A DNA stretch of 64,000 nucleotides from NCBI GenBank assembly GCA_964016885.1, contig OZ024744.1, positions 76,446,001 to 76,510,000 on the forward strand, in the 5' to 3' direction. The notes under the pieces are model-generated. The model was not told the DNA's origin and searched no databases. It saw only the letters and a program-made list of their open reading frames with translations. The translations under genes and the position numbers were made by a program. This stretch comes from Eledone cirrhosa (Eukaryota). Below, one piece after another: positions 12,829 to 63,037 of the stretch (the first letter of the stretch is position 1; the number at the start of each line of letters is the position of its first letter).

Positions 12829-13260
12829 TATTATTCAAAATGTTAACAAATTGAAAATATTCGAATAATCAAAATATATACTTTATTATATATATTTCAA
12901 AGGTACTGTGCTGTTTTTTCAGTACGTCCTCATCAGACAAATTATATGATTTCATATATGACATACCGCTACTGCCTTGATTATTCAATTCCCGTATTGG
13001 AACTGAATAATGAAGACCGTAGTGGTATGTCATATATCAAATCATATATTTTGTCTGATGAGGACGTACTGAAAAAATAGCACAGTACCTTTGAAATATA
13101 TATAATAAAGTATATATTTTGATTATGTGAATATTTTTCATTTGTTAACATTTTGAATAATATTAAAAACTCCAGGAAAACTTTTTTGTTGAGTGCTTCT
13201 AATCTATTGTAAAACTGTATTCGTTGAGTAATCCACGAACCATATTAATCTTTGGTTTTA
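12829..13260. mobile_element. Fold-back pLTR element in (TA)n, ~164-bp arms (12829-12992 / 12999-13162), HHR in each arm
   Basis: Near-perfect inverted repeat; CTGATGA at 13055, gtactg/cagtac stem, GAAA at 13093. Confidence 0.85.
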
Positions 13261-13277
13261 TATATATATATATATAT

Positions 13278-13987
13278 AAATACAAATAAATTATCGAGAA
13301 TCGGAATCTCGGCCCACGAAATAACGAAACACAATCTTCGAAATGTGTGGCAAAGTGCTCAATAGTTTGGGTAAACCAGAGCTATAACTAACGTTTAAAT
13401 ACCAACACACTGAGACGATGCTTAAACAATCATTCGCACAGCCGAAAAAACGACCAAGAAAATTCGGGTCAGACAAATAAAAATATGTATGAATGAAAAA
13501 TGTTTACCCGTACCCCCTGGAAAGATGGTAAATTCCAGCATTTGGGTTTCTGCGGCTCCTAAATCAGTTACCGTCAGCTTACATAAAAAATATCCGGCTT
13601 CTGGCAGAATGATGAACGAGGAAACCACTTTTCAACAGGCGGTTAGTTCAAATATACAAGGGAACCCGTTACTAAATCAACGTGGGGTCTAACAAGGGAG
13701 GGAACCCCTATATTAGGCGAATGAATTCAGTAGTGTATATTATTGTAAAAATACAAAATATCACATATCGAGTTAGAGTTCTCAACAGACGGGTTAAAAT
13801 TAACATGAACTATTCATCAGTCAATAGGATCAACTAAAAAATCAAAAAAATTAACTGACCAATAGCTAAAGACTGGAGATAAATACAAATAAATTATCGA
13901 GAATCGGAATCTCGGCCCACGAAATAACGAAACATATTCTTCGAAATGTGTGGCAAAGTGCTCAATAGTTTGGATAAACCAGAGCTA
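13278..13987. mobile_element. ORF-less element with ~110-bp terminal direct repeats (603-bp period) in (TA)n
   Basis: 13278-13387 repeated at 13880-13987. Confidence 0.7.
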
Positions 13988-14010
13988 TATATATATATGT
14001 GTGTGTGTGT

Positions 14011-59115: not shown

Positions 59116-59168
59116 ATATATATATATATATATATATATATATTTATATATATATATATATATATATA

Positions 59169-61252
59169 GTAATGGCTTGCATTACCCGTATAGAAAGCCG
59201 AATGATACGCTTAATTACATAAGTAAGCATTCTAACCATCCTGCCAGCATAACCAAGAACCTGGTAAGAAACGTTTCTTTGAGGCTTTCCCGTCTATCTA
59301 CTAACGAGCATATTTTCAACGTCCATTCCATATATTACAATGAAGCTCTTGCGTGGAGTGGATTTGTCGATAAGGTAGCATATACTGAGTAAGAGAATAG
59401 ACCTAGAAGAAATAGATCCCGACGCATTATATGGTATAACCCACCATATAATATGGAGGTGGCCACACCATTAGCTAAGATCTTTCTTTCCCTTATTACG
59501 AAGCATTTTTCCCCTACACATAAATATAGTAAAATTTTTAATAGAAATACAATTAAAATTTCTTACTCTACGCCTCCTAACCTTGCACATAACATCACAG
59601 CTTCAAATTTAGCTAAACTACCTAGCCGTAGGAACACGTGTAACCCTGTAGTTAGTACTAACTGTAATTGTAGGAATCGGGTTGACTGCGCCTATCCGAG
59701 AAATGCCTCTCTAATAACATTGTCTACAAATGTAAGGTTGAAACACCCACGTCTCGTAGGCCTACATAGGGTTAACCGCCAATAGATTCAAGCAGCGTCT
59801 TTACATGCATACCCATTCTTTTCGTAACCCTTTAATAAGGAATATGACGTCACTTTCAGCTTATATCTAGAGTCTAAAAGACAACCACACCAAATATAAG
59901 TTACACTGGGAGATCCTAGCTAAGGCTAGATCGTATAACGGAAATAAATAACCATGTGCCCTCTGCGCCGCTGAGGCCCTGCAAATACTCTACGCCAAAG
60001 ACCACATCTTAAACAAAAAATCTGAGGCAATTTCGGCTTGTAAACATAAATTGCACAAAACTTTCCTGTATTACAGCCCAACATTATACCCTAACGGATA
60101 GTACGAACTATACGCGGATATTTTACGTCTTGATGTGGTAGTTAAGTATATGTTATGTTTATACCATTACTTATATGTATAGGTAAGTATATATTACCTG
60201 TATGTTTTGTGAAGGTACGTATACTTTCTCGTATGTATATTTGATTGTATATGTTATGGCGTATATATTATATATTCTGGTACATATGTTTTTGGTTAAT
60301 GTGTATGCGTGAGTTTTGCGTCTGTGTGAGTATGCGGGTTCGTATGTATGTAGGGTGTGTGTATATGTGTACTTTGTGTTTTGGTTGACGTACGTCTCCG
60401 AACATATGTGTATTTACATGTAGGTATGTGTGTGCGCTTGTTATATACGTATTTATTTATTTATATACGTTTATTTAATTATATGTATACACGCACACAC
60501 ACACACACACACACATACACACATATATATATATTTTTTTAAATATATATTTTTATGTGTATACATTCGTATGTGTATACATTCGTATGCGTGTGGGTAC
60601 AGGTGTTGCGTGGGTTCTGTATGTGCGTGCGGGTTTTTTTTTGGTTTTTCTTCGTGTACGTGCGTGTATTTGTATACCTATGGCGTGTTTTCGCGTATGC
60701 TTGTGTATGTACATGGATGTATATGGATGCGTGTATGTATTTATTTAATTTCAATTACCTCTGTATTTTATTTACTTTATTCTTAACTCTGAAGCTGAGA
60801 ATCATTCGGTTTCCTAGTTAGAATTTTAGTCTACGACTTCAGTTATACCATATACGTGGTTTTGTCTTTGCGTGCAATTGTTCTCCACGCTCCACATAAT
60901 GACGTATTAACTTCGTTTTTTTTTCGTTCATTGCCAGAGAACGTCTCTATGAAGCACCTAATAGAATATTAGTCTACGACTTCTTTTATACCATAAACGT
61001 GGTTTTGTCTTTGCGTGTAATTGTTTTTCACCGCTCCAAATAATGACGTATTATATTCGTTTTTTCCCGTTCTTTGCCAGGGAACGTTTCCACAAACAAA
61101 GTATCGTTTTCGTGTCTTCCTCCGGTTGCAACGTTTTTTGAAATATTTACTTCTGTGTTCACAGATTGACTTTGTTAGTTTCAGAAGATCCCGTTAAGGG
61201 TGAAAGCAGCGATTCTTTGCTTAAACTTTAATCTGTTATTTTAATAAATAAT
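59169..61252 (+). mobile_element. 5'-truncated Naiad-like Penelope element
   Basis: HYPYRKPN..SNHP, IIWYNPP, CNCRN and CALC..CKH motifs; HHR-like CAGAAGA-tccc-gttaa-gggt-GAAA at 61182-61205. Confidence 0.88.
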
Positions 61253-62859
61253 TTATATATATATATATATATATATATATATATATATATATATGTGTGT
61301 GTGTGTGTGTGTGTGTGTGTGTGTGTACACACACACACACACATATATATAAACATATGACACGCATATATATGTATGGACGTACGTGTATTTATGTATA
61401 TGTATCAATGCAGGTGTGTGTGCGCGTGTCAATGGTTTTCTGTGATTATTCATTTGTTTACTTATTAAATCTTTTTTTTTTTTTGCTGTATTTAAGCTAA
61501 AAGATAAACTAAAATATTTGGCATATATGTTGTCTCACTTTCTCTAAAATGTCCTTGAAATGTTTATTGGACCTTTTTCACAGAAGCTTGAATGTTCTCT
61601 GGACTAACATAGGCTTATCAATTTAGAATATACACACACACACACACACACACACACACATATATATATATATATATATATGTGTGTGTGTGTATATATA
61701 TATATATATATAAATATATAATTATATATATATATATATAATTATATATATATGTATATATGAATATATATATATACAACGCACACACACACGCACACAT
61801 ATATATATATACACATAGATACATACATATATATATATATATATATATTATTATTATTTTTTTTTTTATTTTATTTTTTTTTAGAATTTAAATAAAATGG
61901 TCTCTGGTGGCGGAGAAGTAGAATGAGCACCCATGACCTTTGCAGGTCCTCGCAGACTGGTGAGATTGAAGTTCAACTTGAACTAAAAGTCTGGTTGGTG
62001 TCTGGATAGTCTAAAACATCAACATCAACAACAACAACAACAACAACAAATAGTGGGTGACAAGAGGAAGGGTTACACTGTGTCACTGCTCTGGGTGGGG
62101 GGTGGGGGGAAGAAAGGATTGGTTGGATGTAGTGTTAAAAGCTAAAATGTTGGTTGAAGGGGGTGAAATGGAATAGGGGTGGGGGTGGGATGGGTCTGGA
62201 AGTTGACACCAAGTAAGGGTGACAGGCAGGAGGATGAGAGATGTGTGGGTGGGTGGGAGAGGAAAAAGAGCTGGTTTGGTTCAGGTGATGGTGGTATGTA
62301 GATATTTAGGTGTGTATGTGTGTATGTGTGGGTGAATGTGTGAGTGAGTGATGGGGCATGTTAGTAAAGAATGAAGAGAGGGAGAGAGAGAGAGAGAGAG
62401 AGAGAGAGAGAGAGAGAGAGAGAGAGAGAAAGAGGGGCTGAGAGAGAGATAGAGGCAAGAGAGAGAGAGACAGACAGAGAGAAAAAGAAAGAAAGAAAGA
62501 AAGAAAGAAAGAAAGAAATAATTGTTTCTACTTTTTGGCACAAGGCCAGCAATTACCCAGTACATTAGAAAGAAATAATGAAAGAAAGAAAGACAGAGAG
62601 AGAGAGAGAGAGGAACCAGAACATCCATATCTGTAATTGAGACGTTTATAAGTCTATTGGTGATTGAAAAAGATTTGCTGGAATCATGTCATCATAGAGG
62701 CTATGACCTCAGGCTGGTAACAGTGAAGAAATAAATAAAGTAAATGAGTGCAACTCTCTCACTCTCATATACGTATACATGTTTATGTGCGTGTGTATGT
62801 ATATATATAATTATATATATATATATATATATATATATATATATATATATATATATATA

Positions 62860-63037
62860 TAGGAACAAGTAAGACCCCGGCGGCTGAGCTCAAGCCGTTT
62901 CGACGAATTAGCCGTCGAAACGGCTTGAGCTCAGCCGTCGGGGTCTTACTTGTTCCTATTACCCACTCTACTACCCTAAGTATTGAGTACTTTGGTACGT
63001 TATGGTTCACCTGGTTCCTTACCACATTTCCTTCGTT
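62860..63037. mobile_element. Hairpin mini-element, copy 3 (opposite orientation)
   Basis: Same family as 45313-45507. Confidence 0.88.

Follow-up and report, generated by a model that had tools for sequence, protein, structure and literature searches.

How does a retroelement come to leave two oppositely oriented pieces of its own end at one target? This question is raised by 14 loci lying between positions 12829 and 63038 of a 64,000-nucleotide stretch of the Eledone cirrhosa genome (NCBI GenBank assembly GCA_964016885.1, contig OZ024744.1, positions 76,446,001 to 76,510,000 of the forward strand), referred to below as the window. The window is AT-rich animal DNA, dense in microsatellites; its left part holds APE-RT elements of the non-LTR class (without long terminal repeats, LTRs) in (GATA)n, and its right part many pieces of Penelope-like elements (PLEs) between (TA)n tracts. 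The 14 loci, named here by the start positions given in an earlier, sequence-only reading, are likely to be 5'-truncated PLE ends, mostly linked by their motifs to the Hydra clade. It is fairly probable that each is a 5'-truncated PLE insertion produced by coupled twin priming, with a start site on each side of a hairpin in the element's tail.

Inverted pairs were sought by self-BLAST after simple-repeat masking, followed by alignment locus by locus. Each pair score was set against the highest score among 20-100 dinucleotide shuffles; because only the real sequence had its split point optimised, the comparison leans slightly in its favour. As the sequence-only reading had claimed, two opposed pieces were found at all 14 listed loci, each pair scoring above its shuffle maximum. 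The weakest case was the decayed pair at 57677 (57666-57830; arms 57678-57725 and 57735-57782; 48-nt overhang), with a score of 36 against a shuffle maximum of 21 and 36/48 identical positions. Arms were 20-243 bp long, with identities of 90-100% in 13 of the 14 pairs and 75% in 57677, and the spacers between them ranged from 3 nt to 1922 nt. Two loci, 32435 and 49945, were tandem arrays with one inverted arm rather than simple pairs. Most inverted copies were only 157-470 bp long and lacked an open reading frame (ORF), and no ORF was found at the 13 loci other than 40741.

Fold-back chimeras are a known artefact, and the 99.6% identity of the arms of 40741 and 49945 would be in keeping with chimeras of amplification or assembly. 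Against such an origin, the arms differed in 13 of the 14 pairs, the ends were fixed by family, and one structure was found at three loci. The differences between arms (17 A/G, 16 C/T and 24 transversions in 1432 aligned bases) looked neutral, which argues against fresh chimeras, and the same A/G and C/T counts gave no signature of A-to-I editing between arms. The 14 loci are real PLE insertions and not chimeras, an explanation to which we give almost no credence.

The outward direction of the 3' ends, also proposed earlier, is firm at 12 of the 14 loci from a hammerhead ribozyme core, an ORF or the tail hairpin. It is weak at 57677 and at 48822 (48824-49077; arms 48826-48883 and 48957-49013; 64-nt right overhang; tail hairpin not found), each with half a hammerhead core. 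Locus 51253, which had been left ambiguous, is tail-out as well, from the minus-strand core at 51405. An Rfam scan of the whole window gave no matches at gathering score, and the hammerhead calls therefore rest on our own pattern searches. By these, a full or near-full core was found at 12829, 32144, 32435, 40741, 44456, 49945, 51253 and 54642, and only the 3' half at 45313, 54818, 62860, 58755 and 48822, to which 57677 was added by eye. The type I hammerhead motif of the PLE pseudo-LTR (pLTR) appears to be present, whole or half, at the 14 loci. Hammerhead-like motifs were also seen at non-inverted PLE ends at 58487-58694 (+), which has (GA)n on its 5' side, and 44214-44250 (+).

The most regular feature was the position of the tail. 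At each locus one outer end lay at the repeat (within 12 nt of it at 57677) and the other 35-96 nt further out, so that a tail was present on exactly one arm at 14 of 14 loci; for the tandems 32435 and 49945 this was judged from unit phase. No symmetric pair between TA tracts was found in the masked self-BLAST of the window. Both end sites, the proximal (tail-less) and the distal one, were fixed per family, and non-inverted copies used them too. If the ends were chosen independently, at most half of the loci would be asymmetric, and the chance of the observed run would be no more than 1.2e-4 over 13 loci or 4.9e-4 over 11 families. As far as the literature was searched, a tail on exactly one arm throughout goes beyond published accounts.

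The identity of the tail can be read from the non-inverted Hydra-type partial tandem at 35989-40404 (+), in which a truncated pLTR (35989-36065) is followed by the tail sequence, here the 5' untranslated region (UTR) before the ATG at 36209. This UTR contains two hairpins (36073-36101 and 36161-36181); downstream lie a broken ORF from 36209, with DKT, YLDD and CxCX5C motifs, and a 3' pLTR with a degenerate hammerhead at 40309. A 405-nt tandem duplication of 94% identity was also observed in the 3' region of this element (39058-39877). A solo tail of the family of 45313, between TA tracts at 33477-33556 (+), spans exactly the interval from the proximal to the distal site. The ORF-less unit of 603 nt at 13279-13985 (-) starts at the proximal site and stops at the distal one; its 104-nt direct terminal repeat is a tail, with hairpins at 13355-13382 and 13958-13985, and it is the direct-repeat counterpart of the inverted form. 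Two more tails or tail ends standing alone between TA runs were observed at 48678-48712 (-), of the family of 44456, and at 63040-63163 (+), of the family of 32144.

A bulged hairpin (RCTC, a variable 2-7 bp stem and loop, a pyrimidine bulge of 1-2 nt, GAGY, RC) begins 5-20 nt past the proximal site in the tails of 8 of the 14 loci. The pattern gave 20 rows in the window, 15 of which, located at 14 sites, showed an inner stem of at least 2 bp, whereas 200 shuffles averaged 0.18 and never gave more than 1. In the alignment of the 14 sites, 98.8% of cells were paired and three of the six pairs were compensatory; three of five pair-count measures beat all 500 shuffled controls. A model built on these sites recovered the held-out tail of 45313 (E 0.002) and, at E 0.18, the solo tail at 33477; it gave no match at E<=5 in 32435, 40741, 48822, 49945, 51253 or 57677. 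A full tail hairpin was also seen at 56693-56722 (+), within a 1.9-kb segment (55416-57274) in which 51 nt are directly repeated (56148 and 56728) and which is possibly an old non-autonomous PLE.

Six Hydra consensus sequences in File S7 of PMC8557442 were inspected by eye. The hairpin was clear in three of them (at the 3' end of the coral Hydra-2_Amil, twice at the 5' end of the sea-cucumber Hydra-1_Ajap, and at the 3' end of Hydra-2_Ajap), took a variant form in two (Hydra-1_Crog and Hydra-1_Amil) and was not seen in that of Hydra-1_Obim. No published description of the tail hairpin was found by literature searches or in the passages covered, which extended neither to the Hydra families of Repbase nor to the Penelope papers of 2005-2008. 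We infer that the hairpin is an RNA site bound by a predicted-dimeric protein, which would set the two start sites. A bolder version is put forward tentatively, at rather less than even confidence: the hairpin (RCUC, stem-loop, 1-2 nt bulge, GAGY, RC) may be shared by Hydra PLEs across the clade and bound by a dimeric reverse transcriptase (RT)-endonuclease, with one RT firing on each side, on opposite strands. With one RT firing from each side, every inverted insertion would use each start site exactly once.

Two countable signatures separate the models of origin: which end has the tail, and which arm owns the spacer. In the spacers of three loci, a hammerhead core lay on the strand of the tail-less arm, with a chance of 0.017-0.039 per spacer. 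These were 32144 (32145-32301; arms 32145-32164 and 32199-32218; core 32191 (-), belonging to the left arm; 83-nt tail with hairpin 32239-32259), 51253 (51257-51537; arms 51257-51287 and 51457-51487; core 51405 (-), again of the left arm; 50-nt right overhang) and 54642 (54643-54802; arms 54643-54682 and 54718-54757; core 54709 (-); 45-nt tail with hairpin 54763-54784). One arm there has the ribozyme and the other the tail, and therefore neither contains the other. As the tail-less arm is the longer at all three, a single fold-back complementary DNA (cDNA) is excluded there, which favours coupled twin priming with two RNA-templated cDNAs. The spacer belonged to the tailed arm at 40741 and at 44456 (44460-44929; inverted arm 44460-44536; long piece 44537-44835 with hammerhead 44602 (+); 94-nt tail with hairpin 44853-44879), and the core was absent from 5 of the 10 spacers examined. 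Folding of the three short spacer hammerheads (32144, 51253 and 54642) gave no significant z-scores, and only 51253 gave the expected stems I and II.

Self-priming would work otherwise: a hairpin intermediate, either a folded cDNA or an antisense template (the latter fold-back being the proposal of Arkhipova et al. 2013), would be resolved by staggered endonuclease cuts at both tail boundaries. This yields one-sided tails without further assumptions. It also suits six loci with loops of 3-16 nt, namely 45313, 54818, 57677, 62860, 12829 (12829-13258; arms 12829-12992 (-) and 12999-13162 (+), 6-nt loop, hammerheads at 12936 (-) and 13055 (+), 96-nt tail 13163-13258 with hairpin 13169-13196) and 58755 (58744-59112; arms 58829-58962 and 58979-59112, 130/134 identical, 16-nt loop, half a hammerhead core, 85-nt tail (-) with hairpin 58795-58821). 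Three related copies moreover join at the same stem II position, and in the passages available PMC3846280 reads junction palindromes as self-priming and PMC8557442 ascribes the tail to endonuclease resolution. However, fold-back of a single target-primed cDNA cannot make the tail-less arm the longer one, as at 32144, 51253 and 54642. If the cuts had a fixed polarity, the tail should always sit on one particular arm with respect to the spacer, whereas both arrangements occur, though in different families, and the tail ends coincide with the RT start sites mapped in PMC11167929. Self-priming is therefore retained as the main, though unlikely, alternative to coupled twin priming. The earlier proposal that the cDNAs were joined by microhomology or snap-back held in part: the two assessable inner junctions had 2 nt of microhomology each, while snap-back of one cDNA failed at the three loci with the longer tail-less arm.

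A rule by which the junctions lie at the ribozyme cleavage site was rejected, as only 54642 and 32144 join near it. Junctions fell at hammerhead stems in 32144, 40741, 45313, 54642, 54818 and 62860; this is suggestive, and was not counted as evidence, since short truncations would often land there anyway. Separately, 5' ends inside hammerhead stem II were observed at 35989, 58003 and 40977, non-inverted pieces included, and may mark a site at which the RT stalls.

Contrary to the earlier description of the elements as apparently unrelated, 45313, 54818 and 62860 form one family (family S), 12829 matches Hydra-type ends, and the tail hairpin is common to the eight loci that carry it. The family S palindromes have a left-hand (-) tail of 81 nt whose hairpin, at 45354-45391, is mutated (45314-45504; arms 45395-45447 and 45451-45503), an 80-nt tail (-) with hairpin 54865-54890 (54819-55024), and an 82-nt tail (+) with hairpin 62965-62990 (62862-63038). 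Their near identity in structure and junction position would suit a family master copy that was already palindromic and was copied whole as a non-autonomous unit resembling a miniature inverted-repeat transposable element (MITE). Their junctions differ, however: a 3-nt loop at the hammerhead stem II position in the first, a 14-nt duplication in the second and a 7-nt spacer in the third. The sole variable site shared among the six arms groups them by locus (G/G, C/C, T/T) and not by side, so that each insertion either had its inverted arm made anew or underwent local conversion. With other families found both inverted and non-inverted with the same ends, a palindromic master is improbable. A MITE or other transposon with terminal inverted repeats was likewise rejected, as the repeats are not flush with both ends and one arm is always internal by 35-96 nt.

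An origin after insertion was also considered. (TA)n is self-complementary and extrudes cruciforms, and replication template switching at such fragile tracts could duplicate and invert adjoining sequence and leave ends with TA microhomology. The position of the tail-less end is, however, set by the element and recurs in independent copies, among them non-inverted ones; the inner junction lacks a TA tract; and the inversions are limited to PLE ends, with other TA-adjacent sequence not inverted. Template switching is largely excluded.

The role of the target remains to be considered, as the sequence-only reading had attributed the inversions to priming on both strands of palindromic (TA)n. Insertion in or beside TA repeats was confirmed, but pure (TA)n on both sides failed at three loci: the right flank of 57677 is (CA)n, 51253 lies in a TATC/TA mix, and 62860 is flanked only by TATA, followed by another PLE fragment. 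TA microhomology of at least 2 nt was observed at 14 of the 15 ends with a known native continuation (background 0.22), or, counting independent ends only, at 12 of 13 (p about 2e-7), and measured 1-5 nt at the family-fixed ends. Priming on both strands fits these data. The palindrome as a cause of inversion is unproven: 16 PLE pieces beside (TA)n, listed by hand, had no inverted partner, so that a palindromic target is not sufficient.

In its strong form, in which palindromic (TA)n causes inversions and they are rare at other targets, the claim is doubtful. In addition to the TA microhomology, it can draw on the APE-RT pieces in (GATA)n (labelled Tx1 by that reading alone), where, as it had stated, no local inversion or strand switch was seen, and on the two PLE pieces with (TG)n or (GA)n as 5' flank, neither of which is inverted. 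These APE-RT elements are nevertheless non-LTR elements with other machinery; inversion in 13/29 PLE pieces versus 0/6 APE-RT pieces (p=0.064; 57677 and a seventh APE-RT piece near 301-2358 left out) is a confounded comparison, as element class and target change together. In the passages available, PMC3846280 reports inverted pLTRs with ordinary target site duplications of 8-10 bp in the rotifer Adineta, and PMC8557442 describes tandem and inverted insertions shared by PLEs with an N-terminal endonuclease, some in (CA)n or (C)n, with no breakdown per target. Pairing of TA with either strand is plausible as a facilitator of the second priming. A long APE-RT copy at 16700-22046 was observed with (GATA)n at one end and, at the other, a (TA)n tract where the PLE ending at 16580 lies.

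The clade labels rest on motifs, because database searches gave little for Hydra-type pieces: 5 of 17 ORF pieces matched Pfam at E<=0.01, none of them Hydra-type, and the Hydra-type endonuclease piece had only two homologs, both without a name. The CxCX5C linker that marks the Hydra clade was present in the ORF remnants at 36209, 45766 and 59169, with CxCX4C at 33566. The single copy long enough to read had the Hydra-clade DKT instead of DKG and, near the N terminus, RWS in place of RWK. The GIY-YIG cores of the 33566, 36209 and 45766 copies had one Cys only, that is, no CCHH, as in the Hydra clade, and (TA)n insertion, another trait of that clade, was shown by the window elements. The non-inverted Hydra-type copy at 33566-35975 (+) ends with the tail (hairpin 35892-35916) and is homologous to the 12829 end; that at 45766-48644 (+) ends at the tail-less site, with a hammerhead at 48546. 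An asparagine-rich stretch was also seen between RT and endonuclease of a Hydra-type ORF (33879-34577 (+)) and recalls the N-rich inserts of Adineta Penelope elements described in PMC3846280. Among the short elements, the Hydra link was direct for 12829, which aligned with the 3' ends of the Hydra-type ORF copies (75/92 against the copy ending at 48645), and relied on the tail hairpin for seven more; most short elements are tied to the clade in this way only. No link was found for 32435, 48822, 49945, 51253 and 57677.

Locus 40741 is not Hydra. This 5'-truncated PLE (40743-43193 (+)) has an inverted tail-less copy at 40743-40977, 234/235 identical to the direct end at 42900-43134 and ending inside hammerhead stem II, and a 59-nt tail. 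Its ORF remnant (40978-42615) matched RVT_1 below cut-off (E 1.5e-4), with YVDD and YIG motifs indicating an RT followed by a C-terminal GIY-YIG endonuclease, and had 60 homologs, the best named being an Octopus bimaculoides protein (51% identity). The CX4CxxC linker, two Cys in the endonuclease core and a His pair correspond to the CX2-5CxxC and CCHH of the Neptune and Nematis clades. A non-inverted copy at 14484-16580 was 83% identical to it over 2.2 kb.

Partial tandems forming pLTRs were present at 35989-40404, 32435 and 49945. The 32435 locus (32437-33369; sense -) has a 430-nt hammerhead unit with a core at 32678 and an inverted arm (33127-33369) that reaches 61 nt further into the unit, with 2 nt of microhomology at the junction. 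Its three copies differ by a star pattern of private changes (9, 5 and 4), by which the source unit of copying could not be told apart. The 49945 locus (49946-51240; sense -) consists of 3.4 tandem copies of a 310-nt unit with cores at 50140, 50450 and 50760, and an inverted arm (51010-51240) with a core at 51081 (+); its ends differ by 35 nt. Both resemble the non-LTR retrozymes of bioRxiv 10.64898/2026.07.22.740005 as non-coding tandems with type I hammerheads. With at least two consecutive units carrying a complete type I hammerhead taken as the mark of a retrozyme, 49945 qualified with three units, whereas 32435 was rejected, having one intact core and a mutated core in its second unit. 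As both arrays terminate in an inverted arm that shows the tail offset of PLEs, their insertion is tied to the PLE route.

In the passages available, PMC3846280 describes an inverted pLTR with an optional tail as the typical Penelope structure, head-to-head being the most frequent arrangement; the sequence-only reading was correct in recalling inverted pLTRs as known in PLEs. PMC8557442 describes an inverted 5'-truncated copy, a tail that is often confined to one end, and Hydra elements that target (TA)n; its Hydra clade includes Penelope-13_HM, which has an inverted 5' copy, and the Octopus bimaculoides family Hydra-1_Obim. With typical PLE insertions carrying an endonuclease (PMC3846280, PMC8557442 Fig. 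2 and PMC8969392), the window loci share the head-to-head copy on the 5' side, the often one-ended tail, junction palindromes, 5' truncation, partial tandems, the pLTR hammerhead and microsatellite targets. They differ in tails of 35-96 nt against the published 30-40 nt, in one-sidedness at 14/14 loci against 'often', and in that most copies are 157-470 bp without an ORF. The (TA)n target, CxCX5C linker and canonical hammerheads, with DKT in the one copy long enough to read, agree with the Hydra clade of PMC8557442, whose passages do not mention the bulged hairpin, although it is visible in the consensus file. The head-to-head layout, one-end tail, junction palindromes, (TA)n targeting and small interfering RNA (siRNA) from inverted arms are already published, and the window families are new. 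Beyond what was found in print, as far as searched, are the rule of the one-sided tail, the longer tail-less arm at three loci and the covarying tail hairpin.

In L1 twin priming, two opposite-strand cDNAs are made with their 3' ends outward and are joined by short microhomology; the segments of L1 inversions lie side by side, for the most part without overlap, and the second primer can land at any position. At the window loci, in contrast, the starts of both cDNAs lie within 35-96 nt, and one sequence is copied twice. An L1-type product was rejected on this ground, the arms duplicating one sequence instead of adjacent segments, and only the workings are similar. A closer parallel is the Poseidon element PAc, whose purified protein, a predicted dimer, cuts and extends both strands in vitro from two internal start sites bounding the tail (PMC11167929, in the passages available). 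An AT-rich target and a stem-loop at the start region are also shared. PAc initiates without target homology or strand preference, whereas the window ends show TA microhomology and always one of each site, and its stem-loop is AC-rich and inside the ORF, whereas the window hairpin is in the 5' UTR.

The mechanism that we infer from the observed geometry, end sites, microhomology and hairpin covariation, with protein binding, coupling and joining as its conjectural parts, would begin with nicking of both strands of the (TA)n target by the element protein. The two cDNAs would start at opposite limits of the tail, one immediately upstream of it and the other at its far end, both being copied from one RNA or one source. 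The 3' ends of the cDNAs, both antisense, would then be joined by 1-3 complementary nt, in many cases close to hammerhead stems. Self-complementary TA at the start site could pair with either strand and probably ease the second priming, being neither sufficient nor, according to the literature, required. At any locus that is transcribed, hairpin RNA would arise as a by-product.

Several points weigh against coupled twin priming around a tail hairpin. The six tight palindromes are more simply explained by fold-back, and the by-locus grouping in family S rests on one site. Six of the 14 loci lack the hairpin, and the tails of 48822, 51253 and 57677 are defined as overhang only. The hairpin pattern was drawn from the same sequences, and the shuffle null is therefore optimistic; two of the five pair-count measures did not exceed their shuffles (57/500 and 315/500), and plain folding gave the hairpin back in only some tails. 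PMC11167929, in its available passages, reports that the start sites did not differ between the strands and that initiation took place without target homology. The sample is one window with 11-12 families, most of them without an intact source element.

Other repeats were observed in the window. A 144-nt unit is repeated in tandem in about 6-7 copies at 30754-31735, with no ORF seen. A dispersed repeat of about 190 nt, which we take to be probably a short interspersed element (SINE), occurs at 7811-8774 (in tandem at 8224-8774), 10544-10663, 27496-27691, 40421-40606 and 62516-62567. An exact 35-nt duplicate links 11853-11887 and 12563-12621, 710 bp apart; at the latter place a short palindrome is centred on a TA run, with arms facing the repeat, the opposite geometry to the inverted pairs. 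Short palindromes of 33-56 nt outside TA tracts were present at 5626-5658, 5690-5736, 7520-7572 and 28034-28073.

How PLEs make inverted repeats and tails is a long-open question, its mechanism being called undefined in the passages of PMC8557442, and it becomes testable here. The tail hairpin is a candidate cis-acting element that can be mutated with compensatory rescue in an in vitro assay of a type already in use, and a practical marker for short ORF-less Hydra insertions. If the hairpin model is true, one mechanism would account for both the PLE tail and the inverted pLTR, and it would name a cis element common to autonomous and short non-autonomous copies. Folding of 11 loci predicts that their transcripts, if made, would form unbroken helices of 16-233 bp. 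The loci would then supply double-stranded RNA, a principle already known for Penelope, whose inverted repeats are matched by siRNAs (PMC3681739, in the passages available).

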